Assembly: GCA_040771805.1 (NCBI GenBank) | Contig: JAXGZJ010000001.1 | Location: 830,796 to 894,795, forward strand | DNA length: 64,000 nt | Reading direction: 5' to 3' | DNA from: Methanofastidiosum sp. | Lineage (GTDB): Archaea > Methanobacteriota_B > Thermococci > Methanofastidiosales > Methanofastidiosaceae | Part shown: positions 12 to 54,877 of the stretch, piece after piece | How positions within the stretch are numbered: position 1 is the stretch's first letter | Layout: every line of letters starts with the position of its first letter | Position numbers and translations under genes: made by a program | Notes under the pieces: generated by a model | Told to the model about the DNA's origin: nothing | The model's database searches: none | What the model saw: the letters and a program-made list of their open reading frames with translations, nothing else

Positions 12-983
12 ATGGGGATAAATTATTCATTATCTAGGTATATAAAAGAAAAAATAATTATTCCTTTGGAAAAAATATCCAAGCATGCAGAAGAAGTTGG
101 TAAAGGTAATTTTAATATTAAAGTAGGTTTTGATGGTGAGGATGAAATAGCAATTCTTTCAAGACAAATGGATGAAATGGCTGAAAAATTAAAGAGAACT
201 TCTATGATTAGAGAGAACTTCAATAAAGCATTACAAATTGAGGTACAAAAAACAACAGAAAAACTTCAGGAAGCTTATGATCAGCTAAAAGATTCCGATA
301 AAGCAAAGAAAGACTTTATCGATGCAATAGCTCACGAACTATACAACCCATTAGCAATTATTAGCTTGAGTAATGAATATATTCAGTTAGATTCAATTGA
401 TCCCCATAACAAAAAAATGATTACTTCAATTCAAAGAAACATAAAACGATTAATCTATTTAGTTAAGGAAATTGAAGATTTTATAACAATAGATTTTCAA
501 GATCAAAAAATCAACATGGAAAAATTTAACCTTAAAGAAATGATAAATATTGTTACTCAGGATTTTAGTATTTTAGCTAGTAAAAAAAACATAGAATTAT
601 CCTTTACTTCAATCGGCCAAGATTTTTATTTAGAAGGAGACAAAAGCAAACTCACTAAAGTTTTTGTTAATTTAATCGAAAATGCGATTACTTTTTCAAA
701 TGAAGATGGAAAAATAAATATTACTATAGATGATAGGAAAGAAAATATTGAAGTAAAAATAGAAGATAATGGAATTGGAATAAGAAAAAAAGACATTAAA
801 TATATTTTTGAAAAATTCTATAGGGCAGAAGTTGATGATGTTATGAGACAAGGCATAGGTCTTGGACTTCCAATTGCAAGAAGTATTGTAACTAATCATG
901 ATGGAATAATTAATGTTAAATCCGAATATGGCAAAGGAAGCGTTTTTACAGTAATATTACCAAAAAAACATGTAGTATTATAA
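12..983 (+). CDS. Sensor histidine kinase, C-terminal part (HAMP-like linker, HisKA, HATPase_c); probably 5'-truncated by the window edge
   Basis: Phospho-acceptor motif AIAHELYNPL; ATP-binding motifs NLIENAITFS, DNGIGI, GLGLPIARSIV...GKGSVFTV; reading frame stays open to position 3. Confidence 0.8.
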   Translation: MGINYSLSRYIKEKIIIPLEKISKHAEEVGKGNFNIKVGFDGEDEIAILSRQMDEMAEKLKRTSMIRENFNKALQIEVQKTTEKLQEAYDQLKDSDKAKKDFIDAIAHELYNPLAIISLSNEYIQLDSIDPHNKKMITSIQRNIKRLIYLVKEIEDFITIDFQDQKINMEKFNLKEMINIVTQDFSILASKKNIELSFTSIGQDFYLEGDKSKLTKVFVNLIENAITFSNEDGKINITIDDRKENIEVKIEDNGIGIRKKDIKYIFEKFYRAEVDDVMRQGIGLGLPIARSIVTNHDGIINVKSEYGKGSVFTVILPKKHVVL

Positions 984-1170
984 CTTTTATAAAAACACAT
1001 CTGAAATAAGGAAAATAAAGTGGAAGTTACTGGTGCAAAACAAATTTTCATAAAATATAAAGAGTAAAATTTCTGTAAAAAAAACAACATCATATAAATA
1101 TCTCCAAATGAGTTGTATAAGATAAATTAATTATGGAAATGAAGGTATGGAATCAATATATATAATTCCA

Positions 1171-3130: not shown

Positions 3131-3880
3131 CTAACTAAAAATATTATCCTTTTTCAATCCCTTTTCCACTTCTTTGTATATTTTCTTCAATATTTCAATC
3201 CTATTTTTAGATTCCAATATACTCCTACCAACAACTATGATAGAGGCCCCATTAACAATTGCTTCTTCTGGCGTACATACTCTTTTTTGATCAGAAAATT
3301 TATCGTCTCTCAACCTAACACCAGGAGTAACATATAGAATTTTTCTATTAATATATGGTCTTAGAACATTAATATCTTTTGGAGAGCAAATTACTCCATC
3401 ACATCCGTTTTCTGAAGCTATTTTTGCATAGCTGACAAGAGCTGCGTCAAAAGATTTATCAATAAGTATGTCTTTAAGGGAATTCCTATCGTGGCTTGTG
3501 AGTATTGTTACTCCTAAAATCATTGGCCTTATTTTTCCATATTTAATGACACCATCATTTACCCCTCTAACGGCTGCTTGAATCATTTCACTTCCACCCA
3601 TTGAATGAATGGTGAACATTTTAATATTATGTTTAACTAACGCTTTTGAAGCATTTTTAACTGTATTTGGGATGTCATGAAATTTAAGATCTAAAAAAAC
3701 ATCTCTTTCAAAACTTTGTGGAATTTTAATCGAAGAAGTCCCTTCGGAAACAAATAACTCCTTTCCAATCTTATATGTTCCGACATATTCATAACTTTCT
3801 TTAATTATTTCTTTAGCTAAGGCTAACGAATCAACATCAAGCGCTAAACAAATCCTCTTTCGGACATCTTCTTTATTCAT
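3131..3880 (-). CDS. pyrF: Orotidine 5'-phosphate decarboxylase
   Basis: ICLALDVD and DLKFHDIPNT (DxKxxD) active-site motifs. Track ORF runs to 3925, but the internal Met (MNKEDV...) at 3880 reduces overlap with pyrE to 8 nt. Confidence 0.75.
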   Translation of the reverse strand: MNKEDVRKRICLALDVDSLALAKEIIKESYEYVGTYKIGKELFVSEGTSSIKIPQSFERDVFLDLKFHDIPNTVKNASKALVKHNIKMFTIHSMGGSEMIQAAVRGVNDGVIKYGKIRPMILGVTILTSHDRNSLKDILIDKSFDAALVSYAKIASENGCDGVICSPKDINVLRPYINRKILYVTPGVRLRDDKFSDQKRVCTPEEAIVNGASIIVVGRSILESKNRIEILKKIYKEVEKGLKKDNIFS

Positions 3881-5414: not shown

Positions 5415-6323
5415 TTATTTCATTCCTAATATTTTTTTTGGATTAGTTATAGCCATCGTTTTTAATGCCTTTTCTGAGATGCCTTCTTTATTTAACAAGT
5501 TCATATATGTTTCAAGACATTCACTTGATGAAGGATTTTTTATTTGGCCTGCGTCAGAAGAGATTATGCAGTGTTCATAGCCTACCTCTTCAATATCTTT
5601 TTTTATTGTTTTAAGAGGATAGTCTTCTGGATGATCTCTATCTAGCCACATAACATAACAGTGCTCAATATAAGCTCCTTTTAATGCAAGTTCTTTTTGA
5701 ATTTCAATTGGCATATTGATATCTCTTTGCATTGGGTGAGTAACGATTGTGGGAATGCCCATTTTTAAAGCCTCTTTTGCTAGAACATAGCTTTCTTGCC
5801 ATGAAAGGTGTCCTGTTGCTAGAATACAATTATTTTCTTTTATTGCTTTAAGAACTCTAATACACTTTTCAAATAATTTAGAATTCCAATCTGTAACTTT
5901 TATGGCTTTAAGTTCAGATTTTAGTCTTGGCTTGAATTTTGGATCTCTTACCCACTCTGGGGGTATTTCATACTGACTATGATTTTTCAACAAATGATTT
6001 TCTGCATGTATTGTGGGAAACCACACTATTATTGGTGCACCTTTTGACATTGTTGCTGAAGCATATATTGCACTTGGATTAAATCCTCCCATGAAATAGT
6101 TTAAAGTAATTGAACCTATTAAAAAAGGAAATTCTGATTTTTTTTCAATTGTATTTATTGCGGATATTGTTGGAAATGCATGAGATTTTAATGCTATTCC
6201 AGTAATTTTTCCTTTTTCATTTTTCAAAAGGCTTTCAACTGTATCCTTTCTTGGAAGAATATCTGGGCCTATATGATAATGCATATCTATTGCATCTTTT
6301 ACTATTGAAGGAATTCCGGACAT
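5415..6323 (-). CDS. Metal-dependent TIM-barrel hydrolase (Amidohydro_2-like)
   Basis: N-terminal DMHYH metal-binding motif and C-terminal IISSDAG aspartate motif; stop overlaps the start of the upstream gene. Confidence 0.5.
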   Translation of the reverse strand: MSGIPSIVKDAIDMHYHIGPDILPRKDTVESLLKNEKGKITGIALKSHAFPTISAINTIEKKSEFPFLIGSITLNYFMGGFNPSAIYASATMSKGAPIIVWFPTIHAENHLLKNHSQYEIPPEWVRDPKFKPRLKSELKAIKVTDWNSKLFEKCIRVLKAIKENNCILATGHLSWQESYVLAKEALKMGIPTIVTHPMQRDINMPIEIQKELALKGAYIEHCYVMWLDRDHPEDYPLKTIKKDIEEVGYEHCIISSDAGQIKNPSSSECLETYMNLLNKEGISEKALKTMAITNPKKILGMK

Positions 6324-7564: not shown

Positions 7565-7913
7565 ATTAAGTCCTCCTTTTACAAAGGAGGGAATAAGAAG
7601 AACTGTTATAAATTTTTTTATTTTTTACAGTCATTCCTATTAGAACCTTTCTTAATCAATCCAAAAATCATATATAAAGTTTTAGGTTTTGAATATTTTA
7701 TTATAGGATTGTTATTTAATTACGTGAGAAATACATTTAGAGATTTAGAAATCACATTATCTCTTTTGTAAGTTATGTCATTAGAGACTGCACGTTCTTT
7801 TAGACATACCTAGAAGGTTTAAGAACAATATTTATAAATCGAACATATATTTAGTAGTATTTGCGGATCAAAATCAATAACGATTTTTTGTTTTTTATAA
7901 TAAAGTTTGTGGG

Positions 7914-8834
7914 CTACTCACCGTTCATTTTTGAAATAGCCATCTCAAGATTATTATTTAATAATTCAATAGTGCCTTTTCTATAAGACAACTTTAAATC
8001 AGTTTCAGAGGATATTGTTTGGCATTTGCTTTTATAATCCATGCAATTAGAACAAATGTATTTTAATGCAACAATCTGCTTATAATTGGCTTCTCTTAGC
8101 AAATATTTTGTCATTTCTACAGCATCAAAATTTTCAATCCCTAATTTATCTCCAATTTCTTTCAGACGATTTTCTCCTATAGTCTCTATTTTTCTTTTAC
8201 TAAAAAGGCCCCAATGATTGGCGAAACCTGGAGTTAAAAAAAATGTACCTGGCTCTTTTGTTAATATTTCTATATAATTAGCTTTACTTCCTAAAAGAGC
8301 ACAAACACAATCATCAACTATTTCTTTATTTTCATCTTTTAAAATTCCAAAAGGTAATTTAATACGACTCTCTCTCAACATTTCCTCCAGATTGTTCAGC
8401 GAATTGCCGCATAATCCATAATAAATCAAAAGATAATCAGAATGTTTCTGTAACTCTATACAAGCACTCAAGACTTCTTCTTTTAATTCTCTTGGATCAT
8501 AATGGAGGAATAACGGCAAAATATATACTATGATTTCCAGTTCCTCTTCTCTTTTAAGATATCTTGGGGCAAATAATTCCCTAGCTATCCTTATTTTTTC
8601 ATAAGGAAAATTACTTCTAATAATATCCTCAAAATACTTTGAAGATTCTGTTTTTACGATAATTATTTTGTCTATTTCTGAGTGTTGCTTTATGACAAAT
8701 AGAAGTTCATCTTCAAATACTTCACAACAAACAATGCCAATTCGTTTGGAATTTTTTCCATTACTGTTCGATTCTAGAATCATATTACTAATCCCTTTAT
8801 TGTATTTATAATGATTAGATTTTATTAAATACAA
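7914..8834 (-). CDS. Cys-rich conserved hypothetical protein (possibly DUF1638-like)
   Basis: Long ORF with YGLCGN and CSNCMDYKSKC motifs; family assignment from memory only. Confidence 0.4.
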   Translation of the reverse strand: MYLIKSNHYKYNKGISNMILESNSNGKNSKRIGIVCCEVFEDELLFVIKQHSEIDKIIIVKTESSKYFEDIIRSNFPYEKIRIARELFAPRYLKREEELEIIVYILPLFLHYDPRELKEEVLSACIELQKHSDYLLIYYGLCGNSLNNLEEMLRESRIKLPFGILKDENKEIVDDCVCALLGSKANYIEILTKEPGTFFLTPGFANHWGLFSKRKIETIGENRLKEIGDKLGIENFDAVEMTKYLLREANYKQIVALKYICSNCMDYKSKCQTISSETDLKLSYRKGTIELLNNNLEMAISKMNGE

Positions 8835-18908: not shown

Positions 18909-19301
18909 TTATTTTGTCGTGAGATAAACGAGTATTAACAAAGCTAATGTTGTGAATAGGTCTGGGAGTATTATAAATGGTCCAAGACCACTTGATCTAA
19001 ATCCGCATACCGCTTGTAATATGGGGCTCGAAGTTAAAATGTTAATGAGAAATGCAAAAGAGAATATAGTTAAGCCTAATGAAAATGGAGATTTAGTTTT
19101 TCTATATATTTTTGCATAAAGAACAAACACCGCTAGGATTAATCCAATATTTATTAGAGAAATAGCATATTTTAGTTGGAATATATATCCCCTTTCCCAA
19201 ACACCACAAACTGGATATTCGCAAACTCCATTTTGAATTAATCTATTTGGAGTTAATCCTATGCCGGATAATCCTAAATATTTACTTACTTTTAAACTCA
19301 T
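18909..19301 (-). CDS. Hypothetical integral membrane protein
   Basis: Three to four hydrophobic segments; overlaps the upstream wHTH gene by 20 nt. Confidence 0.4.
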   Translation of the reverse strand: MSLKVSKYLGLSGIGLTPNRLIQNGVCEYPVCGVWERGYIFQLKYAISLINIGLILAVFVLYAKIYRKTKSPFSLGLTIFSFAFLINILTSSPILQAVCGFRSSGLGPFIILPDLFTTLALLILVYLTTK

Positions 19302-19593
19302 TAGTATCTAACCCCATATTTTTACAAATCTCATTAAAGTCATTAATGTTCCTATCAAGTAACTCTGAAGGGAAATAGGTCTTCCCGTATTTATCTCCAA
19401 CTGAAGATAAAAGACCATTTTTTTCCAATATGTTTAAATGATGCTGGACAGTTTTATATTCTATACCCGTTGCTAATGATATCCTGTTAGCATTTGAAGG
19501 ATTTGATATTACGTACTTTAATATTAAAGCCCTATTGACTCCACCTCTTGAGCCTGCTATTAGCCAAAGGAGTATTTTTTTATCTCTATCCAT
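19282..19593 (-). CDS. Winged helix-turn-helix transcriptional regulator (ArsR/MarR-like)
   Basis: ISLATGIEYKTVQHHLNILEKNGLL helix-turn-helix plus wing in a ~100-aa protein. Confidence 0.55.
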   Translation of the reverse strand: MDRDKKILLWLIAGSRGGVNRALILKYVISNPSNANRISLATGIEYKTVQHHLNILEKNGLLSSVGDKYGKTYFPSELLDRNINDFNEICKNMGLDTNEFKSK

Positions 19594-30420: not shown

Positions 30421-30975
30421 TTACACCAAACCTTCATCAATTAAGGATTTTTTGACTCGCTCTATTGCCTTAATAACATCTTCCTCTGATTTAGCTCCGG
30501 TACATACAACTTTGCCACTTCCAAATAGAAGTAATACTACTTTTGGCTCTTTTAATCTATAGATTAAACCCGGGAATTGTTCAGGTTCGTATTCGCAATT
30601 TGGGAGAGTCAGGATAATATCATCAAGATTTAATTTCATTTCTAAGTCGCCAGATGCAACGATATTTTGCACTACTATATCTGGCTCTTTCTCCATCGGA
30701 GTGCCGTAATCTTTCAAAATTTCGATTATTTTAAATATTGCCCTTCTAGATTCTTCAGGGGATTTGGCTCCAGTGCACACAAGTTTCCCACTTCCAAAAA
30801 CTAAGGTGGCAGTCTTTGGTTCATCAAGTCTTATTACCATTCCTGGGAACTGTTCTGGCTCATACTCAATGTTATCTAAAGAGCTAGCGGCTTTAACAAG
30901 ATCGACTCTATTAAATAGATTAGCAGAAGTAACAACATTTTGAACCGTCATTTTATATTTACCTAATTTAGACAA
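30421..30975 (-). CDS. tbp: TATA-box-binding protein
   Basis: Two direct repeats (LVFGSGKLVCTGAKS and LLFGSGKVVCTGAKS) with EYEPEQFPG in each half. Confidence 0.9.
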   Translation of the reverse strand: MSKLGKYKMTVQNVVTSANLFNRVDLVKAASSLDNIEYEPEQFPGMVIRLDEPKTATLVFGSGKLVCTGAKSPEESRRAIFKIIEILKDYGTPMEKEPDIVVQNIVASGDLEMKLNLDDIILTLPNCEYEPEQFPGLIYRLKEPKVVLLLFGSGKVVCTGAKSEEDVIKAIERVKKSLIDEGLV

Positions 30976-41121: not shown

Positions 41122-41344
41122 GAACTATGCATTTATGTTGTAATTTATAAACTTTGTTAAAACGTATGCTTTATTGTATAATTTATATTGAAATGATGGT
41201 ATCTCTGAGATCCTTATACTAAGATCATAGTATTCTGCATTATTCTAGAATTAGAAGAATCATTAAAACTATTTTTTTTAAGTATTTTAAACAAAGTATG
41301 TCCAAACTCAGAAAAATAGATTGGGCATTAGTTTGTAAAAAGAG

Positions 41345-41419
41345 TGCCGCGGGCCGGATTTGAACCAGCGGAATACCAGATCTTCAGTCTGGCGCCCTCC
41401 CAGGCTAGGCGACCGCGGC
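41345..41419 (-). tRNA. tRNA-Phe (anticodon GAA); CCA not encoded
   Basis: Hand-folded cloverleaf: 7-bp acceptor stem GCCGCGG/CCGCGGC, D-stem GCCT/GGGC, anticodon stem CCAGA/TCTGG with loop CTGAAGA, T-stem GCTGG/CCGGC with loop TTCAAAT. Confidence 0.85.
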
Positions 41420-41607
41420 TTAGCTAATAAAAAGTGAATCTTTTGGATAATATATAAACTTTTCCCATAATATTATTTTGCAGTATAATCCTATCCAAGT
41501 GATGCTTATTCCTAATTTGCACTAAGCATTGTATGAGATTTAATCTTTATCGTCAAAGTATGCAGCAAGTTAAATATGCACATATTAGCTTTGATATTTC
41601 AAGCAAC

Positions 41608-42381
41608 TCAAGAAATAGATGGAACTATAACTTTCATGTCTAAAATTGATTCTATTGAACATATATCCCCATATAATAATTTTAGTATGTCGTTATCCAT
41701 TACTTCTTTTGCATTCCCATATCCAATCAGAGCTCCTTTGTCAATAAAAGCCACAGTATCACAAAACCATGATACATAGTTTGGATCATGTGTACAGACC
41801 ACTACAGTTTTACCTTTAGATGTCAATAGCTTTAGAGTTTTCCAGATATTTATTTGATTTCTAAAATCAAGGGCCGAAGTAGGCTCATCTAGCAACATTA
41901 TAGGGGTGTTTTGTGCAAACGATCTAGCTAAAAGAACCAACTGTCGCTGTCCTCCGCTTAGCTCAGTGTAATACCTATCGGCAATATTAGTTATGCCGAT
42001 AGTATTCATTGAGTATTCTGTAAAGTCTAAATCAATTTTTGAAGGATTAAAAAATCCTCCTAGATGTGGAGTTCGTCCCATCAAAACTATTTCTCTTACT
42101 TTAAATGGAAAAGGCGGCTTATGTTCCTGTGGCACATAAGAAATAATTTTAGCCAATTCTTTGGGATTAAAATTATTCAGTACTTCTCCATTTATCAGTA
42201 TATTTCCATCATTAGTTTTATTGAGGCCAGCTAAACATTTGAGCAAGGTAGACTTACCAGAACCGTTAGGACCAAATAGGGCGCATAATTTTCCCTTTTC
42301 TAAATTAAATGTGATATCCTTTAATACTTTCAAAGTTCCGTAATTAAAGGATAAATTATTTATTTTAATCATTTCTATCAC
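41608..42381 (-). CDS. ABC transporter ATP-binding protein (FepC/BtuD-type)
   Basis: Walker A GPNGSGKST, signature LSGGQRQ, Walker B MLLDEPTS. Confidence 0.85.
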   Translation of the reverse strand: MIEMIKINNLSFNYGTLKVLKDITFNLEKGKLCALFGPNGSGKSTLLKCLAGLNKTNDGNILINGEVLNNFNPKELAKIISYVPQEHKPPFPFKVREIVLMGRTPHLGGFFNPSKIDLDFTEYSMNTIGITNIADRYYTELSGGQRQLVLLARSFAQNTPIMLLDEPTSALDFRNQINIWKTLKLLTSKGKTVVVCTHDPNYVSWFCDTVAFIDKGALIGYGNAKEVMDNDILKLLYGDICSIESILDMKVIVPSIS

Positions 42382-43394
42382 CCAAAGTAAAGATTTCTAT
42401 TTTTTCTAACTAGAATAATCAAATATGGTGCGGCAATTACTGAAGTCAAAATACTGATAGGAATCTCACCAAAAGTTAAAGTTCTGGCTAAAGTATCACA
42501 TATCACTAAAAATAATCCTCCCATTATAGCGGAAGCAGGTATCAAATAACGATGATCTGGGCCGATTGTCATTCTTGCCATATGAGGAATAACTAGTCCC
42601 ACCCAAGCAATTATCCCAACAGTTCCAATAGCTATTGAAGTAATAAACGTAGACAGTACTATGCTTACAGCCTTTACCTTTTTGACGGATACTCCCAGAG
42701 ACTGAGCTTCCTGATCTCCCATTGTCAGCACATTTAACTTCCAAGCGAGACTCCACAATAGAATAAAGGATATAGTTATTAAAACAGAAAGTAGTCCGAC
42801 ATCACCCCACTTCGCAGTATAAAATCCACCCATCAACCAAAATACCAAATCACGTAACTCTCTAAAACCTGCGGTCATTTTTAAATATGAAAGGCCTGCA
42901 GAAAATATAGCACTCACAATTATTCCAGAGAGTATAAGATTAATCAACGGCGTTTCCTTTTTAACTGTGGCAAGAGAATATGCAAAAATCATCGCAATCA
43001 TCCCGAACACAAATGAAGTTAGTTGCATGGATAAAAAGCTTAAATGAAGAACAATTGATATTGCAGCCCCAAATGCAGCAGCGGAAGATACGCCCAAAAG
43101 GTATGGCTCCACAAGAGGATTTCTGAATACTCCTTGATAAGTTGTTCCTGCAGTTGCTAGTGCTACGCCAACAATGACGGATAAGAAGATTCTAGGAAGC
43201 CTTATCTGCCACACAACAATCTCATTGTCTAACGATGGAACTGTTCCTATTCCTATTTTATAGATAATTGCTTGAAATACATCTAATATGGGAATGTTAA
43301 AAGATCCTCGAGTTACGGCTACAACCATCCCTAATATAAGAAAAATTAAAGAGGTAATTAGGAATGTGCTTTTTGTCTTGTTATCTGAAATCAT
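42378..43394 (-). CDS. ABC transporter permease (FecCD/BtuC family)
   Basis: ~10-TM permease with FecCD-like glycine-rich helices; overlaps the ATPase gene start. Confidence 0.85.
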   Translation of the reverse strand: MISDNKTKSTFLITSLIFLILGMVVAVTRGSFNIPILDVFQAIIYKIGIGTVPSLDNEIVVWQIRLPRIFLSVIVGVALATAGTTYQGVFRNPLVEPYLLGVSSAAAFGAAISIVLHLSFLSMQLTSFVFGMIAMIFAYSLATVKKETPLINLILSGIIVSAIFSAGLSYLKMTAGFRELRDLVFWLMGGFYTAKWGDVGLLSVLITISFILLWSLAWKLNVLTMGDQEAQSLGVSVKKVKAVSIVLSTFITSIAIGTVGIIAWVGLVIPHMARMTIGPDHRYLIPASAIMGGLFLVICDTLARTLTFGEIPISILTSVIAAPYLIILVRKNRNLYFG

Positions 43395-43406
43395 TCAATA
43401 CCTCCT

Positions 43407-44252
43407 CTATTCCACATGCTGCCATTTAATTTGGACATAAACTGTATCATCATCCCATATGTATTTTCCATTTGATTTATTGAATTTTGTTTCTATATAC
43501 TCAGCAAGATATTTGTCATTTTTAGAATCAGATATTCTTAGACGGAGTTTTAAGTCAGATATTGCTTGATCAATGCTATCATATATTTTTGGAAATGATG
43601 TACCCTTTAGCACAGTAATATTTGGAGATCTTCCCATATCATAGAGAACATTATAAATAACATTACATTTAGGTGAGGGTGTATAGTTGCTGCCATATAT
43701 TTTTTGATACAAATCCATGTACAACTTCTCCCAAGAAGTGACCCCAGAAAACCAATACAGGATAACTTCTTTATTGGAGCAATCTTCCATTTTAAGTAAT
43801 GACTCCTTAATATTTTGCATAAGAAGAGAATAAGAAGCTATAACAATGTCATGTTTTTCTATTTTAGCTGTGTCAAAATTCTCCCATTTCGATTGAAAGA
43901 TTTCGATGTTTGTCAATCTTTCTTCTACGATATGTTTTTTTAGAAGATCAATCATTGATTGAGAGGGCTCAACAACAGTTACCTTCTTCACATATCTTGC
44001 TAAAGGAACTGCTAATACCCCCGGGCCAGCGCCTATATCAAGCACAGAGTAATTTTTATCAAAATTAAGTTCTTTTGCCCTTTTTTCCCCATCTTCCTTT
44101 ATTAATTTTGAGTTATCGTATGCTTCAGCACGTCTTTTATCATTATAATAATTCCTTTCATTTTCATTTTCTGGAAAAGAAAAATTGATTGTTTTATTCC
44201 AAATGGAATTCCAATCAATATAGTTTGACAAAGTTCCCCGATTAAAAGTCAT
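43407..44252 (-). CDS. Class I SAM-dependent methyltransferase embedded in the ABC importer operon
   Basis: SAM-binding motif I VLDIGAGPGVLAVPLA; sits between the binding-protein and permease genes. Confidence 0.65.
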   Translation of the reverse strand: MTFNRGTLSNYIDWNSIWNKTINFSFPENENERNYYNDKRRAEAYDNSKLIKEDGEKRAKELNFDKNYSVLDIGAGPGVLAVPLARYVKKVTVVEPSQSMIDLLKKHIVEERLTNIEIFQSKWENFDTAKIEKHDIVIASYSLLMQNIKESLLKMEDCSNKEVILYWFSGVTSWEKLYMDLYQKIYGSNYTPSPKCNVIYNVLYDMGRSPNITVLKGTSFPKIYDSIDQAISDLKLRLRISDSKNDKYLAEYIETKFNKSNGKYIWDDDTVYVQIKWQHVE

Positions 44253-45393
44253 TTGAGTCCATCCAGTCTAAAAGTTGAATTTCCTTTAGTCTCTGTGCTT
44301 GATTATCGTTTAATCCATAGAGCTCTTTGTGGTAGTCATTAACCCATTTGTTAACCTTTATATCACTGAATTTTTCAGGATATACAGTTTTTGCAGATAT
44401 AAGTAATATTGTAGGATAGTCAAGTTTAAAGTCTCCCCACCAAGTCAAAAGGCCAAAAGAACCTATTCTTCTATTTTTTACAGCGTTGACATTCTGCAAT
44501 GGTTTATATTTAGGGGCTGTACTTAATATGTTGATATCAGGCAATATAGAGTTGGTAGCAAGTATGATCACATCTGGATTCATGGTAATTATCTGCTCTG
44601 CTGACATTAATTGTGATTTGGATTCCCCATATACATTTTTTATGTTGCATATTTCTTCTGCAAACTTTGCGTCTCCGTAATTCTTACCCCAAACGGCACC
44701 TATACTATCATCTGTTTTCAGTCCAATATACATCACAGATGGCTTTTCAGAATCTTTGATGTCCTTAGTTCTATTATATACCATGTCCACATATTTCTTA
44801 GTAATGTCATGTATTTCTTTGGCACGTTTTTCCTTATTAAATACTTTTCCTAATATTATAATTCCTTCATATTGGGTATTCATTGTAGGATTGCTATACG
44901 CTCCGGGGGTATTAATTACTACAATGGGTATTTTAAGTTCATTTTCAATTCTATCCATTGCTTCTTTAGTTATTTCATTGTCTTTAATATATTCTGAGTT
45001 TGCCCAAAGGACTAAATCAGGTTTTACAGATATTAGAGTTTCAAAATTGAACCCCCCAAAGGTATAGCCTACATTTGGAAGCTCTATTATCTTAGGAAAT
45101 AGATATAAACTGTCCCTATCTTCTGCTTTTTCATTTTCTGAAGATAACATTCCACCACTTGCAACTATTTTATCTTGGACGCCCAAAGCAACTATGTTTT
45201 GTGTTATGAAGCCTTTATCAACAATAACAACTCTTTGAGGGTCAGAGGGAATCGTCACCGTCACTCCTCTCATATCAACTATTTCTTTCATGGCAATCTT
45301 CTGTGGTGAACTGGTATTTTGTACACATCCTAAAAAACTAAATGTTAAAAATAAAATCACCATAGTAATCAAAATATTATTTTTGTTTTTCAT
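44242..45393 (-). CDS. ABC transporter substrate-binding protein (cluster A-II/BtuF/FepB-like, probable lipoprotein)
   Basis: Signal peptide with lipobox-like FSFLGC; periplasmic binding protein 2-like. Confidence 0.75.
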   Translation of the reverse strand: MKNKNNILITMVILFLTFSFLGCVQNTSSPQKIAMKEIVDMRGVTVTIPSDPQRVVIVDKGFITQNIVALGVQDKIVASGGMLSSENEKAEDRDSLYLFPKIIELPNVGYTFGGFNFETLISVKPDLVLWANSEYIKDNEITKEAMDRIENELKIPIVVINTPGAYSNPTMNTQYEGIIILGKVFNKEKRAKEIHDITKKYVDMVYNRTKDIKDSEKPSVMYIGLKTDDSIGAVWGKNYGDAKFAEEICNIKNVYGESKSQLMSAEQIITMNPDVIILATNSILPDINILSTAPKYKPLQNVNAVKNRRIGSFGLLTWWGDFKLDYPTILLISAKTVYPEKFSDIKVNKWVNDYHKELYGLNDNQAQRLKEIQLLDWMDSNDF

Positions 45394-45520
45394 AGAATCT
45401 CCTTAATTTTTAGTGTTATTATAGTAGCACTAATTTAGAAAACGTGTTATTAATTATTTATAAAGTTTATGGTTTAATATATAGTTAAAGGACTATTTAC
45501 TCATCGAAATATTTATATAC

Positions 45521-45541
45521 TTGGATGGTGACGCCATCCAT
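45521..45541. promoter_or_regulatory. Palindromic candidate operator, copy 1 (TTGGATGGTGACGCCATCCAT)
   Basis: 19 of 21 positions identical to the perfect palindrome at 54857..54877; preceded by TATA-like ATTTATATAC and followed directly by the ATG at 45542. Confidence 0.45.
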
Positions 45542-45685
45542 ATGAACAATAAATGTATTATCTGTAAGTGTGAATTAAATAAGAGGACTTATATTATCTG
45601 CGAAGATTGTTTTGAAAAATGCATCTCTCAATTGGAATTAACTGATTTTCACAAAAATAGAGAGGCTATCTTTATTATGGATTAG
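45542..45685 (+). CDS. Small zinc-ribbon protein, 47 aa (not in ORF track)
   Basis: ATG...TAG ORF encoding MNNKCIICKCELNKRTYIICEDCFEKC... with CxxCKC-x9-CxxC; promoter-like TATA and palindrome just upstream. Confidence 0.35.
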   Translation: MNNKCIICKCELNKRTYIICEDCFEKCISQLELTDFHKNREAIFIMD

Positions 45686-45771
45686 GATGATAAAAGTAAT
45701 ATAAACAATGAAAAAGTTAATAAATAAACTATAATTCTTACCACAATGCAAAACACAAGAGGTAATTACCA

Positions 45772-45906
45772 TTGAAGAATGAAATCACGATAAATTTTCC
45801 AAAGGACATCAGAGAGTACTGCCCAAAATGTAAGTGTTACCTATATCCTGTAAAAGATCATATTTGCTACTTCTGCAAAAGTAAAACTATTCCCCATAAA
45901 GAATAA
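45772..45906 (+). CDS. Small zinc-ribbon protein paralog, ~44 aa (TTG start; not in ORF track)
   Basis: ORF encoding (M)KNEITINFPKDIREYCPKCKCYLYPVKDHICYFCKSK... with the same CxxCKC-x9-CxxC spacing; AGAGGT SD-like element 8 nt upstream. Confidence 0.3.
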   Translation: MKNEITINFPKDIREYCPKCKCYLYPVKDHICYFCKSKTIPHKE

Positions 45907-45912
45907 AAATAA

Positions 45913-46473
45913 TTAAGAATTTTTAAAAGAATTCTCTTCAAATTCCTTATGAATTTGCTGCATCCATTCAGGTATAGATATTTTGTCCTCAGGGTAAAAG
46001 TTTCTAACATACGGTTTGATATCAACTACAGGACTACCATCGACCGCATCCAGCCCCGTAACCTCTAAAACATTCCCTCTTATACCATGCAAACGGACAA
46101 CAGTCATAAGTATAGGATTTGGTCTTGCAGGGCTACATGTGGCAAATATACCTACCTTTGAAAAACATTCTCTTCCCATAGGATGTACTTTTGTCAAAGA
46201 TCGACTTTGCTCTGGAACTTTATGGGCCCAGTATAAAATTATAAGATGGGAATATTTTTCAACCCCTTCAAGGATATCTATGATATCATTATCAATAATA
46301 ATTTCTGATATTTCCTCATTGATTTGACGAATTTGTTTCATATTGGCTTTGTTCTGTTCCTTCATCTTTATTCCCTCATTTCCGGCAACAAGGGAGGGTT
46401 CATTATTGTTATTTCTTACAATACCAATCGGCCTTACTATCAAATTTCCTGCATTTTTATTATCTTTAATCAT
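45913..46473 (-). CDS. TsaA/YaeB (TrmO-like) family protein
   Basis: VRPIGIVRN N-terminus and RPNPILMTVV...VTGLDAVDGSPVVDIKPY core motifs. Confidence 0.6.
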   Translation of the reverse strand: MIKDNKNAGNLIVRPIGIVRNNNNEPSLVAGNEGIKMKEQNKANMKQIRQINEEISEIIIDNDIIDILEGVEKYSHLIILYWAHKVPEQSRSLTKVHPMGRECFSKVGIFATCSPARPNPILMTVVRLHGIRGNVLEVTGLDAVDGSPVVDIKPYVRNFYPEDKISIPEWMQQIHKEFEENSFKNS

Positions 46474-46513
46474 GTTTCAACCTTCTAACTCTATAGATAG
46501 ATTTTTATCAAAG

Positions 46514-47611
46514 TTATCTTATTCTTATTCCGTCCCCAGTTAATTTATTATATCTGCTCTTTGAACAAGGATAGCAATAATTTCCTCCGTTGCTTTTAGA
46601 TATCCTTGTAGCCATTACGTTTTCCTTACAACAATCACATAAAATGCTATCATATATTGGGGCATATTCTGGGATATCTGCCTTCACTTTTTTTATTGAA
46701 AAAAGGCTATCAAAGTCCATTTTAAGCATGTTAAACGAGACCTCTTTTCCATATTGTTTAAATAAAGAATAATCTTCTTCGTTTCCAGCCCTATCTCTTA
46801 CTACTTTATTAAATAATTCAAAATACTCAGGAAAGTTTTTTTCAAGACCATTTCTGTAATCAGGATTAACAGAAACTCTTATCCCATTGCCATCTCTTCT
46901 AGATAGTGTTACGGCATTTTTTCCAAAATCCCGATAAATAAGGGCATTATTTCCAAATGTACATCCAGTAACATATTGGACGCCATCTGACATGCAATTA
47001 TTTGCTTCAACAATAGCGATTACTTCTTCCATCCCATCTGAAATTTCTTTGATTTCATTCATCAGATAAGCGCTTGCCCTAACTCCAAGGGATAATCCCG
47101 GGCAATAGTGGCCATGAATTGTTCCTGCCGTAATGAGTAGTTTTTCTAAATCATTCTCAGCAATGTACCTAGTTATTTCTGATCTTGGATTGTTTTTTAG
47201 GTAGCTTAGATTTTCAGCTTCTTGACCCTTTTCATCAAGAAAAGCAGAGTACGGTTTTATATCAATAACAGGTGTTCCATCGATTGCGTCAAGTCCCTTT
47301 ACTAGAAGCTCGTTACCTTTTCTTTCCAATAGCTCTACCGTAGTTAGGCCTATATTTGTCGGCCTTCGTGGGCTTCTAGAAGCAAAAACACCTTTTACTT
47401 CGCCCCCATACCTAGGGCCAATAAGTTCAAAATCTTTAGAAAGATGAAAAACAAACATTACCTGGAGATATCTGCTCTCCTCTATCTTATATAGTCCATC
47501 TTCAAAATCTTTGTCTACTATGATTGTACTCTCTGTCTTTCTTAATATATTTGGGTCTACTTGCTCCCTAAAATTATTTTTTACTGTTCCTATCTTTTTA
47601 ATATGCTCCAT
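46514..47611 (-). CDS. Fusion protein: N-terminal TsaA/YaeB-like domain, FmdE-like domain, C-terminal zinc ribbon
   Basis: RRPTNIGLTTV...KGLDAIDGTPVIDIKPY (TsaA-like); HGHYCPGLSLGVRA (FmdE-like); CDCC...CYPC C-terminal cluster; start uncertain (track start 47680). Confidence 0.6.
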   Translation of the reverse strand: MEHIKKIGTVKNNFREQVDPNILRKTESTIIVDKDFEDGLYKIEESRYLQVMFVFHLSKDFELIGPRYGGEVKGVFASRSPRRPTNIGLTTVELLERKGNELLVKGLDAIDGTPVIDIKPYSAFLDEKGQEAENLSYLKNNPRSEITRYIAENDLEKLLITAGTIHGHYCPGLSLGVRASAYLMNEIKEISDGMEEVIAIVEANNCMSDGVQYVTGCTFGNNALIYRDFGKNAVTLSRRDGNGIRVSVNPDYRNGLEKNFPEYFELFNKVVRDRAGNEEDYSLFKQYGKEVSFNMLKMDFDSLFSIKKVKADIPEYAPIYDSILCDCCKENVMATRISKSNGGNYCYPCSKSRYNKLTGDGIRIR

Positions 47612-48374
47612 TATTTTTCCTCCCCACTGGAATAACAAACGGGTAGCCATCGTGCTCCTTAATATAGACATCCACACCATATACTTCTTTAATTAATTTT
47701 GGAGTAATTATATCGTGGCCTCCAACTGAATCAATCATTCCCCCTTTTAAAAAGATGAATTTGTCTGAAAATCTTAGGGCGGAATTAATATCATGCATTG
47801 TCATTATAACTGATACATCATGTCCATCCACAATTTCTGATAAGAGGTACAGTATTTCCTGCTGATTTTTAAGATCTAGACTTGATGTAGGTTCATCCAA
47901 TAATAGTATTTTTGGCTCTTGAACTATTGCTCTGGCTATTCCGACTTTTTGTAATTCTCCACCACTTAACTCATCTAAATACCTTAAAGAGAGATCTTCC
48001 ATGTTTAATTTTTTCATGGCAGAGTTAACTAATGAAATATCCTTGTTAGATACATCCCACTTTATATGGGGTTTCCTACCAAGTAAGATGGCATCAAATA
48101 CAGTTATCCTTACAGTTTCGTTTCTTTGTGGAACATAACCTAACTTCTTTGCTATTTCTATTCTTTTAATATTCATAATATCTTGATTCTCTACCAGTAT
48201 ACTTCCACCTTGTGGCCTTAGAATTCTATTTATGCATTTGAGAAGTGTAGTTTTGCCCACGCCATTTGGGCCTAATATACTTAAAATTTCATTCGACTCT
48301 AAATTAAAGTCTATTTGATTGAATATTTCTTTATTTTTATAACTAAATTTTAAATTAGATATTTCAAGCATCAT
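47598..48374 (-). CDS. ABC transporter ATP-binding protein (FepC/BtuD-type), second system
   Basis: Walker A GPNGVGKTT, signature LSGGELQ, Walker B LLLDEPTS. Confidence 0.85.
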   Translation of the reverse strand: MMLEISNLKFSYKNKEIFNQIDFNLESNEILSILGPNGVGKTTLLKCINRILRPQGGSILVENQDIMNIKRIEIAKKLGYVPQRNETVRITVFDAILLGRKPHIKWDVSNKDISLVNSAMKKLNMEDLSLRYLDELSGGELQKVGIARAIVQEPKILLLDEPTSSLDLKNQQEILYLLSEIVDGHDVSVIMTMHDINSALRFSDKFIFLKGGMIDSVGGHDIITPKLIKEVYGVDVYIKEHDGYPFVIPVGRKNNGAY

Positions 48375-50591: not shown

Positions 50592-50939
50592 TTTTTTATT
50601 TTTGATAAAAACACCTCCGCCAAATAGAATAAGTATTCTATTTATAAGTATTACGTTTTTTTGATACGTGCTACTATTTTTATAAAATCTATCTTTAATA
50701 ACACTTGATAAATTTTTCAATTGCAGCATTGATTCTGTTTCTAGCTTTACTTGATATACTAATTGTCAAAATTCTTTGTAAAATCTAAGTTATTTTCCTT
50801 CTCTATTTCTGAGTAAGGAGGATATAATTAATCAATGCAGTTATAGTCTTTTTCTATAAATATATGCTTTGTTGAATAATTCCAAACAAACGACAATTAT
50901 CTCTAACTTGCCCTTTCTTTACCTTTAGCTTTACACTAG

Positions 50940-51720
50940 CTGTTGCAGTTGGTCATCAGCAGAAATTCATCATCACTTCCTTTTGTGCCATGTCAAATCG
51001 TTTGGCGGTAGTTCCTTCGCCAAATGAGCGCTTGACCGCAGAGAAATATGATTCTATGCGCCACCGCTTGTCATATTCGTATTTCTCTTTCCATGAAATC
51101 TAGCCAATCTTTTTCACTTCCCACATTGACTTAGCACGCAGAGGCGACCTAAGGGGCGTGTTGAGACATTTTTTTGTATCTTTATTATTGAACTGCATTC
51201 TTTTTAGCGGCAATATCAACCATGTTTCTTGTGTCGTAGGCTCCGTCTGCTATAAGAACTTTGAAAGCTACCCCATCAGCTAAAAAATGCTCATTTAGCT
51301 ATCGTGGGCATCTCTATCTGTAACAACTATACCGATTAGTTTTCCTGTCTTAGCGTCGATGGCAGCATGCGCCTTTAGGTAGTTCTTATTTTTCCCGTAG
51401 AGGTAGTTTATCCAGCTCCCGGCATCAGTCATCTTAAATCCGGTGCTGTCGCTTACCACAGTAAGCTCTGAAACATCTTCTATCACCTCAAGCTCAAATT
51501 TCATCTGAAGTATTCTCCGTCAGATGGTGGCGTAGTCTGCCGACTTGATCTTAGGTGAATACTTGGATATAGCTTGAAGAAAGCCTTTGGTCTACCTACA
51601 CCTTAGCCCGCAGACTGTCCTTACAGTTGTTACAAATCTGATGAAAGATTCCTGGTAGGGGATATGATCTTCTGACCTTATCATTGTTCATTAGAGCTAG
51701 CTCTTTGTTCAATATATCGT
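50940..51720 (-). mobile_element. Remnant of an IS4/IS5-family insertion sequence; ends not defined
   Basis: GC-rich patch in an AT-rich background; transposase motifs found in three different frames. Confidence 0.5.
50956..51692 (-). pseudogene. IS5-like DDE transposase, disrupted by frameshifts and stops
   Basis: Reverse-strand translations give AIDAKTGKLIGIVVTDRDAHD, KVLIADGAYDT and YDKRWRIESYFSAVKRSFGE in different frames. Confidence 0.55.
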
Positions 51721-51744
51721 TTAAAAAATCAAAAGATTGATAAA

Positions 51745-53061
51745 CTACCACAATGACTTGCTTAGTATTTCTCTACTGTTAATAACTCTGCATTCTATAA
51801 CAAGGGAAGTTTCATTGACAAATGATTTTATTCGTTTTTCAGTATGTCCTACCATCCCTCCGCTTGTAAGGATAAGGCATTGTTTTCCAGACAATGAAGT
51901 CAAAATAGATTTATCAATAACGTTGGAAGTTACATCAAGGCTAATATTGTCCTTGCTACAAATAGATTTGCTTTTAGAGCCCATTGCTCCCACATATTGG
52001 ATCTTATATTCACCGATAATATTCTGGACTTCTTGAAAGTCATAAAAATCAGTATTATAGATATATATTCTTCCAATATTCTGATGATTGTGGAACTCAA
52101 TAATTGCATTGTTATCTTGGGACTTATAAAAAACAGTTCCCTTCTTAAAGTAGTGATCATTTGGAACATCGTTAAACTCAACTAGATCCCCAACTTTTTT
52201 GTCTGAAGAAATCTTCCTCCACTTTAAATTAGAAGGTTTTAAGAAACCGACTAATTCCAAAAGATTTTTCGGAGTTTTGCCGTCTGTGGCTAAATTTCTA
52301 TTTACAAGTTCATTATATATCTGAATTATAAGGGGAGTTTTAAGATGTGTTTTTTTAATTAGTTCCTTTTCTTTAAACAGCGTATCTGGAGTTCCCTGGC
52401 CAACTATCTTTCCGTCAGCCATTAAATAAACGTAATCAGACCATTGATAAGCCAGCTCGATATCATGGGTAGAAATTATTATTGTTTTGCCGTAGCTATT
52501 GAGCTCATTTAGTATGTCCATAACTTCATTGGCGCCTCTAGGGTCAAGATTAGACAGTGGCTCGTCCAAAACGATGATGTCAGGTTCCATTACAAGTATG
52601 CCTGCTATTGCAGCTCTTTTCTTTTGGCCACCACTTAAATGATGAGGGGATTTTTCTTTTATATGGAGGAGATCAACATAATCCAAAGCCAATTCAGTGT
52701 ACTTTTTAACCTTATCTTCATCCCATCCAAGATTCATAGGGCCAAACGCCACGTCCTGATAGAGAGTTGGTGCAAAAAGTTGATCATCCGGATTTTGGAA
52801 TACCATCCCAACTCTTTTTCTGATTTCAACTAGATTTTTACTGCTATATTTCATTTTTTCTCCATTAAATATAATCTCTCCTTCAGTTGGGGCATGAATC
52901 CCATTAAACATTAAAAAAAGAGTGGATTTTCCAGCTCCGTTTGGGCCTACAAAGGATATTTTTTTACCTGCCTCTATTCTGATATTTACCCCCTTGAGGG
53001 CCTCAAACCCATCTCCATAAGTATATCTGACGTTTTTAGCTACAATGATAGGATTAGTCAT
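51745..53061 (-). CDS. cbiO: Cobalt ECF transporter ATPase CbiO with a ~150-aa C-terminal extension
   Basis: Walker A GPNGAGKST, signature LSGGQKKR, Walker B IVLDEPLS; 438 aa, longer than a typical CbiO/EcfA. Confidence 0.85.
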   Translation of the reverse strand: MTNPIIVAKNVRYTYGDGFEALKGVNIRIEAGKKISFVGPNGAGKSTLFLMFNGIHAPTEGEIIFNGEKMKYSSKNLVEIRKRVGMVFQNPDDQLFAPTLYQDVAFGPMNLGWDEDKVKKYTELALDYVDLLHIKEKSPHHLSGGQKKRAAIAGILVMEPDIIVLDEPLSNLDPRGANEVMDILNELNSYGKTIIISTHDIELAYQWSDYVYLMADGKIVGQGTPDTLFKEKELIKKTHLKTPLIIQIYNELVNRNLATDGKTPKNLLELVGFLKPSNLKWRKISSDKKVGDLVEFNDVPNDHYFKKGTVFYKSQDNNAIIEFHNHQNIGRIYIYNTDFYDFQEVQNIIGEYKIQYVGAMGSKSKSICSKDNISLDVTSNVIDKSILTSLSGKQCLILTSGGMVGHTEKRIKSFVNETSLVIECRVINSREILSKSLW

Positions 53062-53849
53062 AAAATCACTCCAATTCCCACATTTCTCGTAGTATATGTT
53101 AAGATTATTATAAATAAAAGATACAATATTGACACCACTGCTTCTCTCAAAGATATAGGTTTGGTGTCTTTAAAAATAGATATTTTTCCATCATAGCATC
53201 TTGAATTCATGGCAATGTAAAGCTTTTCCCCTTGATCCCAAGTCCGTATAAATAATGTGCTTGCAAGTATGGCAAGAGAATGCATCCAATTCTTAAAAGA
53301 GATGTATCCCATTCTCATATTTTGAGCATCTTCCATTTTCATTGCCAAATCCAAGAATACAAATATATACCTATATATCAGCATGGATAATTCAATAAAT
53401 ATTTCAGGTAATTTTAACTCTTTTAAAACATAAAATAGATGTGTTACAGGTGTAGACAGGGATAAGAAGTAAAGGCAACTCAGTCCAGAAATTGAGCGTG
53501 AAAAAACAAGGACCGCCATATTCAGCCCCCCCATAGTTATTGATAATTTATAATTAAAGATATTAAATGAAATAATATCGGGGCCTGTTCCAAAAAAGAA
53601 TAATATAATTAAAATTCCAAATATCAAAAAAGTACCTGGTATTAATAATAACTTAAGATAAATTTTGACAGGTACTTTATTGAGATATATAATCGCTAAA
53701 CCAAAAAAAAGTGAAATAATAATAGGAGTAACTGGTGATGTGGACATTACCCCTATTATCATAGAAGACAAGGCCAGCAATACTTTAAGCTCAGCATTTT
53801 TGTATCTAAGTGGGCTAATTATGGCATAGTCTTCTAATATCGTATGCAC
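53058..53849 (-). CDS. cbiQ: Cobalt ECF transporter T component CbiQ
   Basis: Polytopic membrane protein between cbiN and cbiO; overlaps cbiO start. Confidence 0.8.
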   Translation of the reverse strand: MHTILEDYAIISPLRYKNAELKVLLALSSMIIGVMSTSPVTPIIISLFFGLAIIYLNKVPVKIYLKLLLIPGTFLIFGILIILFFFGTGPDIISFNIFNYKLSITMGGLNMAVLVFSRSISGLSCLYFLSLSTPVTHLFYVLKELKLPEIFIELSMLIYRYIFVFLDLAMKMEDAQNMRMGYISFKNWMHSLAILASTLFIRTWDQGEKLYIAMNSRCYDGKISIFKDTKPISLREAVVSILYLLFIIILTYTTRNVGIGVIL

Positions 53850-53873: not shown

Positions 53874-54143
53874 TTATTGTTTGCCTTTGTAAAATCCTAG
53901 GAAATACCCTATTATTAGTCCACCTATGGCTGCCTGGAGACTAAAGAATAAACTTTCAATCTCTCCGCTTGGCGGTTCCCATAAAGGTTGTACTATAGGT
54001 TCAAATTCTGGATTTAACTCAGCAATTACATCCCCAGCCTCATCGTCAGCTCCGCCCCATTCAAAACTGCCGGTTGAAGATACAACTACAAATGCAACTG
54101 CAAATATTAGGATTGAGATAATTGCTATTATTTCTCCTTTCAT
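53874..54143 (-). CDS. cbiN: Cobalt transport protein CbiN
   Basis: 89 aa, two TM helices flanking an acidic loop. Confidence 0.8.
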   Translation of the reverse strand: MKGEIIAIISILIFAVAFVVVSSTGSFEWGGADDEAGDVIAELNPEFEPIVQPLWEPPSGEIESLFFSLQAAIGGLIIGYFLGFYKGKQ

Positions 54144-54841
54144 GCTTTTGCACCTCTGCCTAATACTTCTTTTACTGTTTCTTTTGGCATTACCTTCATC
54201 TTTACGAGTATATCTGATCTAACCTGTAAAACATACTTTAAAAGTAGTGCAGTGAGAACACCTTCCATTAAAGCAAGTGGTACTTGTGTAACGGCAAATA
54301 CTGTGGCGAAAGAAGCAAATGAAGTCATGAATCCACCTTCTGCAGCAGGAAATGCCAAGGCGAGTTGAATTGAGGTCATTACATACGTAAACCAGTCAGC
54401 AAATGTTGCAGCAAAAAAAGCGGCTATGTAAAAGTTGATTTTGACCTTCATTAGTGCTTTATAGATAATATATCCAAATATAGGGCCAACTATACCCATC
54501 GAAAATGTGTTTGCCCCGAGTGTTGTAAATCCTCCATGAGCCAAAAATAATGCTTGGTATATCAAAGATATGAAAGACAAGACCGCAGTTACGAATGGAC
54601 CAAAAATAATTGCTCCTAGTGCTGTTCCTGTAGGGTGTGAACAACTGCCAGTGACCGAGGGTAGTTTCAGCGAAGATAAGACAAATATGTAAGCACCTGC
54701 TACAGCCAATAGTGGCAATATTTCTCTGTTTTGCTTGACTAACTTATTGATTTGATAGATTCCATATATTATAAATGGAACTGCCAAAACAAACCAAATA
54801 ATCCACCAAGGAGATGGTAGAAATCCTTCCATTATATGCAT
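54140..54841 (-). CDS. cbiM: Cobalt ECF transporter S component CbiM
   Basis: N-terminal MHIMEGFLP typical of CbiM; polytopic; overlaps cbiN start. Confidence 0.85.
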   Translation of the reverse strand: MHIMEGFLPSPWWIIWFVLAVPFIIYGIYQINKLVKQNREILPLLAVAGAYIFVLSSLKLPSVTGSCSHPTGTALGAIIFGPFVTAVLSFISLIYQALFLAHGGFTTLGANTFSMGIVGPIFGYIIYKALMKVKINFYIAAFFAATFADWFTYVMTSIQLALAFPAAEGGFMTSFASFATVFAVTQVPLALMEGVLTALLLKYVLQVRSDILVKMKVMPKETVKEVLGRGAKA

Positions 54842-54856
54842 TTATTTTCCTCCTTT

Positions 54857-54877
54857 ATGGATGGTGACACCATCCAT
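54857..54877. promoter_or_regulatory. Perfect 21-bp palindrome (10-bp arms, 1-nt centre) over the predicted cbiMNQO transcription start: candidate operator
   Basis: ATGGATGGTG-A-CACCATCCAT lies 16-36 nt upstream of the cbiM ATG, between an AT-rich TATA-like element and the GGAGG RBS. Confidence 0.5.

Follow-up and report, generated by a model that had tools for sequence, protein, structure and literature searches.

We analysed a 64,000-nucleotide stretch of DNA from the archaeon Methanofastidiosum sp. (hereafter the window; GenBank assembly GCA_040771805.1, contig JAXGZJ010000001.1, positions 830,796 to 894,795 of the forward strand) and focused on two small open reading frames (ORFs) arranged in tandem on its plus strand. 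ORF A (45542..45685, ATG to TAG) encodes 47 amino acids (aa), MNNKCIICKCELNKRTYIICEDCFEKCISQLELTDFHKNREAIFIMD, and ORF B (45772..45906, TTG to TAA) encodes 44 aa, MKNEITINFPKDIREYCPKCKCYLYPVKDHICYFCKSKTIPHKE. Our best explanation, to which we assign a probability of about three in four, is that they are two genuine, separately promoted genes of Methanofastidiosum that encode single-domain, four-cysteine (Cys4) micro-proteins of the zinc-ribbon or treble-clef type, predicted to bind zinc (or cobalt), with ORF A probably belonging to a cobalt/corrinoid regulon. An earlier description made from the letters alone (the sequence-only reading) had reported the pair with the cysteine spacings CIICKC-x9-CEDC (ORF A) and CPKCKC-x9-CYFC (ORF B); both ORFs and both spacings are present, and the observation of two small Cys-patterned ORFs is confirmed.

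Two cysteine-patterned reading frames and their coding status

The two ORFs occupy a 519-bp gap flanked by two minus-strand genes identified through Pfam, one for a periplasmic binding protein (Peripla_BP_2, 44242..45393) and one for a TrmO_N-domain protein (45913..46473). The window has a G+C content of about 32%, its genes lie mostly on the minus strand, and contigs identical to it were found in digester metagenomes. We examined the Cys pattern in 813 stop-to-stop segments of at least 30 aa from all six frames of the window and in 50 shuffled windows. A loose pattern, CxxC-x8-20-CxxC, occurred in 6 of the 813 segments, against an average of 0.12 segments in the shuffles; the strict pattern (CxxC-x11-CxxC or CxxCKC-x9-CxxC) was confined to ORF A and ORF B and appeared in none of the 50 shuffles. 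The Cys pattern of the pair exceeds chance.

ORF B encodes a basic (isoelectric point, pI, 8.9), zinc-ribbon-like protein in which C17, C20, C22, C32 and C35 are invariant within the genus. It was called in just one 90%-identity protein cluster of the searched collection (P0001, on four short contigs) and is missing from the NCBI annotations of these genomes. A tblastn search recovered it at 82% identity, with the same TTG start and length, in locus L004 of a related species (TrmO proteins 73% identical), and a metagenome scan added 18 further loci with 75-98% aa identity (L088-L105), which together with L004 and L084-L087 form the homologue set. All homologues are 44-45 aa long and stop-free, 28 of the 44 positions are invariant, and the 3′ neighbour is either a TrmO-like gene or an energy-coupling factor (ECF) S component, always convergent and 0-15 nt away. 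Most homologues start with TTG and those of one clade with GTG; ORF B contains no internal methionine. The sequence-only reading had noted a Shine-Dalgarno-like (SD-like) AGAGGT ahead of this non-ATG start; AGAGGTA lies at 45758..45764 on the plus strand, 8 nt 5′ of the TTG, and motif and non-ATG start are conserved in every homologue, the start always falling 8 nt past AGAGGT(A/T)G. The sequence AGAGGTAG is kept in all homologous loci except the window clade (AGAGGTAA) and L084 (AGAGGTTG). GGAG-type sites also precede the cbiM gene and the binding-protein gene in the window.

The substitution pattern of ORF B is that of a protein under constraint. In the three most divergent sequences, substitutions were distributed over the three codon positions as (6,1,17), (8,5,24) and (7,4,25). 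Nonsynonymous divergence (dN) ranged from 0.02 to 0.17, and synonymous divergence (dS) was several-fold higher, at about 0.2-0.3 in the closest pairs and mostly above 0.4 or saturated. The other five frames across ORF B are broken by stops. The conservation, the codon-position bias and the stops in the other frames together exclude a chance ORF, promoter DNA or an RNA gene. With dN far below dS, a third-position bias and invariant cysteines, ORF B is, judged by its substitutions, a genuine gene under strong purifying selection, as had been proposed.

ORF A encodes an acidic (pI 5.7), Cys-rich protein with a predicted hairpin and helix. In L089-L095 and L097-L100, a homologue with 45-83% identity sits directly 5′ of ORF B; the eight variants, all stop-free and 47-48 aa long, share NKCIICK.EL, C20, C23, E25 and the C-terminal Asp. 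Since C10 is Phe in L093 and L094, and C27, the sixth cysteine, is Tyr outside the window clade, the conserved core consists of four cysteines (C5, C8, C20 and C23). The evolutionary rate of ORF A is five to ten times that of ORF B, its dN/dS is 0.17-0.47, and its indels are in-frame, namely one additional codon in L098 and a 36-nt (12-codon) deletion in L004. The second knuckle is lost with the latter and the tail behind it is frameshifted, so that this copy looks like a decaying gene. By the same comparative measures ORF A is coding and less constrained than ORF B, and the purifying selection claimed for it is borne out by its dN/dS and by the retention of the four-Cys core. At NCBI, homologues of 47 aa (P0007, P0011) are recorded as hypothetical proteins under the names Methanofastidiosum sp. 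and Candidatus Methanofastidiosa archaeon; other gene callers chose starts further upstream for them. In L002, a contig with 1.1x coverage, a stop interrupts ORF A (3857..3865), probably through an assembly error.

Predicted promoters and a shared, proposed palindromic operator

The window encodes a TATA-binding protein (TBP; 30421..30975) and is archaeal on that account, so that its promoter logic is that of a B-recognition element (BRE) and a TATA box. Upstream of ORF A, a BRE/TATA-like element, CGAAATATTTATATA, lies at 45505..45519 on the plus strand and includes TTTATATA at 45512..45519; we take it to match the methanogen BRE/box A consensus. Most ORF A homologues are preceded by GAAATATTTATATA; L093/L094 (GAAATGTTTATATA) and L004 each depart from it by a single base. 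The first T of TTTATATA is 30 nt ahead of the ATG at 45542, and archaeal transcripts normally start about 30 nt past the TATA box. This distance predicts a transcription start at or near the ATG, and hence a leaderless mRNA; ORF A is probably leaderless.

The interval between the TATA box and the ORF A start is filled by a palindromic operator, TTGGATGG-TGACG-CCATCCAT (45521..45541), whose core GGATGG-N5-CCATCC reads GGATGGTGACGCCATCC at 45523..45539. The core ends 2 nt short of the ATG, consistent with the earlier placement of ORF A immediately behind a palindrome. At up to two mismatches, only two sites occur in the window. The second (GGATGGTGACACCATCC, 54859..54875, or 54857..54877 with flanks) lies 18 nt upstream of the start of cbiM (54140..54841, minus strand), with a TATA-like box about 30 nt upstream of the palindrome, which would thus overlap the predicted transcription start. 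The cbiM gene, assigned through Pfam like cbiQ (53058..53849), is accompanied by an 89-aa ORF labelled cbiN by position only (53874..54143) and an ATP-binding cassette (ABC) ATPase in the cbiO position (51745..53061). The operator consensus, (A/T)TGGATGG-N5-CCATCCAT, was not found in the literature searched.

Beyond the window, every locus with an intact ORF A homologue (L088-L095, L097-L100) has the exact operator core ahead of that gene. In total, the core occurred in 21 loci of the Methanofastidiosum type, and the 86 other loci examined had no copy. In L004, the operator is degenerate alongside the degenerate ORF A. Moreover, a pair of operators about 62 nt apart lies between an ECF transporter operon, composed of a CbiQ-like T component, a fused double ATPase and an S component, and a divergent S-layer/DUF4430 gene (L095 9406..9488; L004 555..640; L019 550..636), and both copies directly follow a TATA-like box and precede the start. 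DUF4430 is the C-terminal domain of transcobalamins (PMC4350170). Because the same palindrome stands before cbiMNQO, the ECF operon and the DUF4430 gene, ORF A is probably co-regulated with cobalt/corrinoid acquisition genes. The layout resembles that of known archaeal repressor operators, in which a palindrome just past the TATA box covers the start and is repeated before related transport genes; MDR1, NrpR and Phr are archaeal repressors with operators between the TATA box and the transcription start.

Alignment to locus L089 indicates which gene the operator belongs to. Positions 5581-5710 of L089 correspond to 41337-41466 of the window (100%), and positions 5735-8088 to 45506-47856 (95.6%). 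Between these segments, and thus between a minus-strand tRNA-Phe gene (41344..41419, the only Rfam match in the whole window) and the ORF A promoter, the window carries 4 kb with a FecCD-type ABC operon on the minus strand (41467..45505; ATPase, permease, S-adenosylmethionine (SAM) methyltransferase and binding protein). The split match identifies this operon as a strain-specific insertion, a few bases upstream of the ORF A BRE. As the insertion is recent, the operator ancestrally served ORF A, and a role in serving the divergent binding-protein operon was rejected.

Two further candidates for this region were set aside. A 54-aa form of ORF A starting from the TTG at 45521 would begin with MDGDTIHM, which is the operator read as codons, and the same DNA is non-coding before the cbiM and ECF genes. 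ORF A is also unlikely to be the regulator that binds the operator, the ECF operator pair persisting where ORF A is missing beside ORF B; its absence was judged beside ORF B, and a copy elsewhere in those genomes is possible.

ORF B is preceded about 50 nt upstream by its own BRE/TATA-like element, GAAAAAGTTAATAAAT (45710..45725, plus strand), with a predicted promoter role. Across loci the element takes the form GAAAAAG(T/C)TAATAAAT; the TAATAAAT core is invariant, and the preceding A-rich stretch nearly so, in all aligned loci, including L101, L103 and L084, which lack ORF A. There is no palindrome before ORF B. No oligo-T run occurs on the plus strand between the ORF A stop and ORF B, so that read-through from ORF A is possible. 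Since the promoter-like element and the SD-like motif persist in loci without ORF A, ORF B is, on this comparative evidence, an independently promoted gene. The suggestion that the pair are metal-responsive small proteins is accordingly divided: it is plausible for ORF A, by way of the shared operator, but does not extend to ORF B, which has no operator and has a promoter-like element of its own.

We propose that a consensus BRE/TATA promoter drives ORF A as a leaderless mRNA and that, at this promoter, a putative dimeric repressor, responding to a presumed cobalt/corrinoid signal, would occupy the 21-bp palindrome and block recruitment of RNA polymerase. The same TATA-operator-start layout would govern the ECF operon and the DUF4430 gene, and at cbiMNQO the operator would overlap the predicted start. 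ORF B would be translated from its TTG/GTG start behind the GAGGT ribosome-binding site, under its own BRE/TATA-like element. As a committed guess, both proteins may be metal-stabilised binding modules that modulate a partner, which for ORF B could be a protein or a nucleic acid and for ORF A a component of the cobalt/corrinoid uptake response. A more specific version is speculative, and we hold it to be improbable as a whole. It would make ORF A a cobalt- or corrinoid-responsive micro-protein produced only upon derepression of the uptake genes. The protein would then either serve as a Cys4 module that handles or chaperones cobalt, or inhibit the repressor or a transport component in the manner of Gin; the regulon would be based on a transcription factor, with an operator where bacteria use B12 riboswitches, and ORF B might be a constitutively expressed partner or a zinc ribbon that binds RNA or protein.

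Several observations weigh against the view that both ORFs are Cys4 micro-protein genes and that ORF A is part of a cobalt/corrinoid regulon. The AlphaFold2 (AF2) model of ORF A, a hairpin followed by a helix (residues 21-31), is of low confidence, with a predicted local distance difference test score (pLDDT) of 52. Some lineages can dispense with ORF A: L101-L104 and L084 lack it beside ORF B, and the L004 copy is degenerate. In L099 (60..110), the proposed ATG is replaced by ATA and the sole remaining ATG lies inside the operator, which weakens the start or the leaderless assignment. The ECF S component scored below threshold for the folate and riboflavin S-component models. A search for a regulator among ten small ORFs of the window returned only an ArsR-type helix-turn-helix (HTH) protein, with no link to the operator; this ArsR-family protein (103 aa, 19282..19593, minus strand) is encoded 26 kb from the operators. 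Finally, the close homologues of ORF B and all homologues of ORF A come from one genus, so that synteny is weak evidence for a functional linkage.

Relatives, fold and origin of the two proteins

Neither the two proteins nor their family alignments nor the distant homologues matched a family in scans of Pfam, NCBIfam and PHROGs, and an Rfam scan of the whole window found no family at either ORF. In a zinc-ribbon fold, two CxxC knuckles sit on beta-hairpins that pack as a small three-stranded sheet. For ORF B, AF2 gave a model (pLDDT 75) with short strands at residues 14-17, 22-24 and 40-42. In a Foldseek search of the PDB with this model, the best matches were zinc ribbons (Nop10 with a probability of 0.96, PolD and MCM), none with E < 0.001; the same model found nothing with E < 0.001 in BFVD.

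The best-fitting known kind is the archaeal one-domain zinc-finger micro-proteins, a descriptive class and not a homologous family. Its members (C(P)XCG proteins of Haloferax volcanii such as HVO_0758 and HVO_2753, and Brz of Halobacterium salinarum) have at most 70 aa and comprise little beyond two CxxC knuckles, and ORF A (47 aa) and ORF B (44 aa) are alike in both respects. The motifs are CPKCK and CYFCK in ORF B and CIICK and CEDCF in ORF A; the Pro is found in ORF B, whereas the trailing Gly is missing in all four, the knuckles ending, as read in this comparison, in K, D or E. No sequence homology to the C(P)XCG proteins was found through Pfam or NCBIfam, and the host belongs to a methanogen lineage and is not a haloarchaeon. 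Archaeal zinc-finger micro-proteins are described as often overlooked in annotation, and Brz as encoded in an intergenic region beside the gene that it regulates (PMC6562870, PMC10716476, PMC11241148, PMC2253796); one of these reports states that several predicted members bind no zinc (PMC11241148).

More specific assignments were considered and rejected. The N-terminus of the ribosomal protein eL42 (L44e; KFPKSVNMYCPRCNTY, KYPKQIRTYCPFCK) resembles residues 8-23 of ORF B (NFPKDvREYCPKCkC), and both proteins are basic. The similarity to PDB sequences reaches E values of 0.03-0.09 over 14-16 residues, whereas eL42 has 91-94 aa and about 55 residues between its knuckles against 11 in ORF B; with no match to PF00935 (Ribosomal_L44) among 12 members at E values up to 10, the resemblance is marginal and confined to the N-terminus. 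ORF A is similar in plan to the anti-sigma-G factor Gin/CsfB (PDB 5n7y), a protein of about 50 aa with a CxxC, a hydrophobic hairpin and a second CxxC followed by a helix. The two align over 33 residues at a marginal E = 0.011, with loop lengths that differ by 4 residues. Gin is a zinc-dependent inhibitor of a transcription factor and is confined to sporulating Firmicutes, whereas the host of ORF A is an archaeon with a TBP gene; none of 9 ORF A members had a Pfam hit, and Gin is retained only as a functional analogy, an attractive one for a small protein within a regulon. Rubredoxin, a protein of about 50 aa, carries CxxCG...CPxCG knuckles some 28-30 residues apart; the spacing in both ORFs is 11, no rubredoxin Pfam model matched, and the nearest, zf-ChsH2 ('rubredoxin-like zinc ribbon'), remained below threshold at E = 0.09-0.12.

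We next weighed other accounts of the pair. The sequence-only reading took the common Cys spacing to indicate paralogy, that is, tandem copies derived from one duplicated zinc-knuckle gene. This account concerns origin only, is compatible with our explanation and is possible, though we consider it less likely than not. The ORFs are adjacent on the same strand, the CxxC-K-C-x9-CxxC spacing is common to both and found nowhere else in the window, and hhalign aligned 21 motif columns of the two families at P = 0.0028. The accompanying hhalign probability, however, is 11%, the alignment is limited to this 21-column Cys motif, and there is no identity beyond the cysteines, one Lys and one Leu; BLAST gave E = 2.5-2.9. 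Nor does CxxCKC hold as a shared signature, given that its KC cysteine is Phe in some ORF A homologues and Ala in distant ORF B homologues. The pI values (5.7 versus 8.9), flanking segments and evolutionary rates all differ, and ORF B occurs without ORF A. The evidence therefore fails to establish paralogy as claimed.

The distant relatives of ORF B bear on a different origin. An exhaustive HMMER search recovered P0003 (59 aa, E = 7e-11) and P0004 (81 aa, E = 1e-8), which retain REYCPKC...C.FCKTKTI, with Ala in place of C22. Their genes (L106 245..424; L107 1947..2192) lie on short digester contigs with tightly packed ORFs and no significant Pfam or PHROG match, and in L107 the homologue starts 4 nt after a 244-aa ORF; these contigs may derive from an archaeal virus, a plasmid or another mobile element. 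Archaeal viruses and plasmids commonly encode small zinc-ribbon proteins, and ORF B, perhaps also ORF A, could be a domesticated mobile-element gene, as the only distant homologues reside on such contigs, the pair adjoins tRNA-Phe and the region is a rearrangement hotspot. We regard this origin as unlikely. Integrative elements normally occupy the 3′ side of a tRNA gene, whereas the pair is found on the 5′ (promoter) side; neither an integrase nor repeats were seen there, and the viral structure library gave no significant match. Furthermore, every Methanofastidiosum locus found has ORF B, on which purifying selection is strong, and ORF A carries the operator of a host regulon.

Slightly less probable still is that ORF A is an upstream or leader ORF, or a decaying lineage-specific ORF, with transcription mainly reading through into ORF B. 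Such a role would fit the absence of an oligo-T run from the interval that separates the two ORFs, the five- to tenfold faster evolution of ORF A, its loss in one clade, its truncated or frameshifted copy in L004 and its missing ATG in L099. It fits poorly with the invariance of four cysteines, NKCIICK.EL and the C-terminal Asp in eight variants, with a dN/dS well below 1 and with the constant length; moreover, ORF B, having its own promoter-like element and SD, needs no upstream ORF. That the ORFs are chance frames in a regulatory intergenic region, or conserved non-coding RNA or promoter DNA, is largely refuted and very improbable: gene callers left the gap empty on identical metagenome contigs, the genome is AT-rich and the ORFs short, and some of the sequence conservation where ORF A begins stems from the operator, yet substitutions show codon periodicity, indels come in multiples of three, the frames stay stop-free across 25-55% protein divergence, start codon and SD are conserved, no Rfam family matches and the Cys pattern is absent from shuffles.

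Neighbourhood, locus history and meaning

Besides the cbi genes, the further neighbours of the pair include CbiJ, a tetrapyrrole methylase, two FecCD-type ABC systems and a TrmO_N-FmdE fusion protein; judged from this gene content, the surroundings of ORF A and ORF B concern cobalt and corrinoids. The relatives covered by the tRNA scan (L084, L085, L089, L092, L093, L095, L097, L101 and L104) all carry a minus-strand tRNA-Phe(GAA) gene some 80-130 nt 5′ of ORF A; in those without ORF A, it lies at that distance from ORF B. Near this tRNA gene, L084 also carries an unannotated 62-aa zinc-ribbon ORF (828..1016, minus strand; CPKC...CKKC), which is unrelated to ORF A and ORF B.

The wider region bears other marks of its history. 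Past 47856 the window departs from L089, with a second FecCD system replacing the ECF operon. A 1-kb stretch (50730..51744) that separates the second binding-protein gene from the cbiO-position ATPase is without a long ORF; a 69-aa ORF within it (51295..51504, minus strand) may be a gene fragment and would fit a rearrangement there. The TrmO_N-FmdE fusion gene (46514..47680, minus strand) encodes a C-terminal Cys cluster (CDCC...CYPC) and adjoins the stand-alone TrmO_N gene, the two being wedged between transporter operons.

Collectively, ORF A and ORF B add members to a known kind of protein. Small proteins are routinely overlooked in archaeal annotation, yet ORF B is among the most strongly constrained sequences in its locus, and even should both turn out to be ordinary zinc ribbons with a structural role, the annotation would still be corrected. 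The shared operator is the more interesting lead, as it joins cbiMNQO, the ECF transporter, the transcobalamin-like surface protein gene and ORF A. The methyl-reducing metabolism of Methanofastidiosum, an uncultured methanogen, is presumably corrinoid-dependent. The operator would offer a testable handle on the control of cobalt/corrinoid uptake in an archaeon without known B12 riboswitches, and it nominates the 47-aa ORF A protein as a member of the cobalt/corrinoid response.

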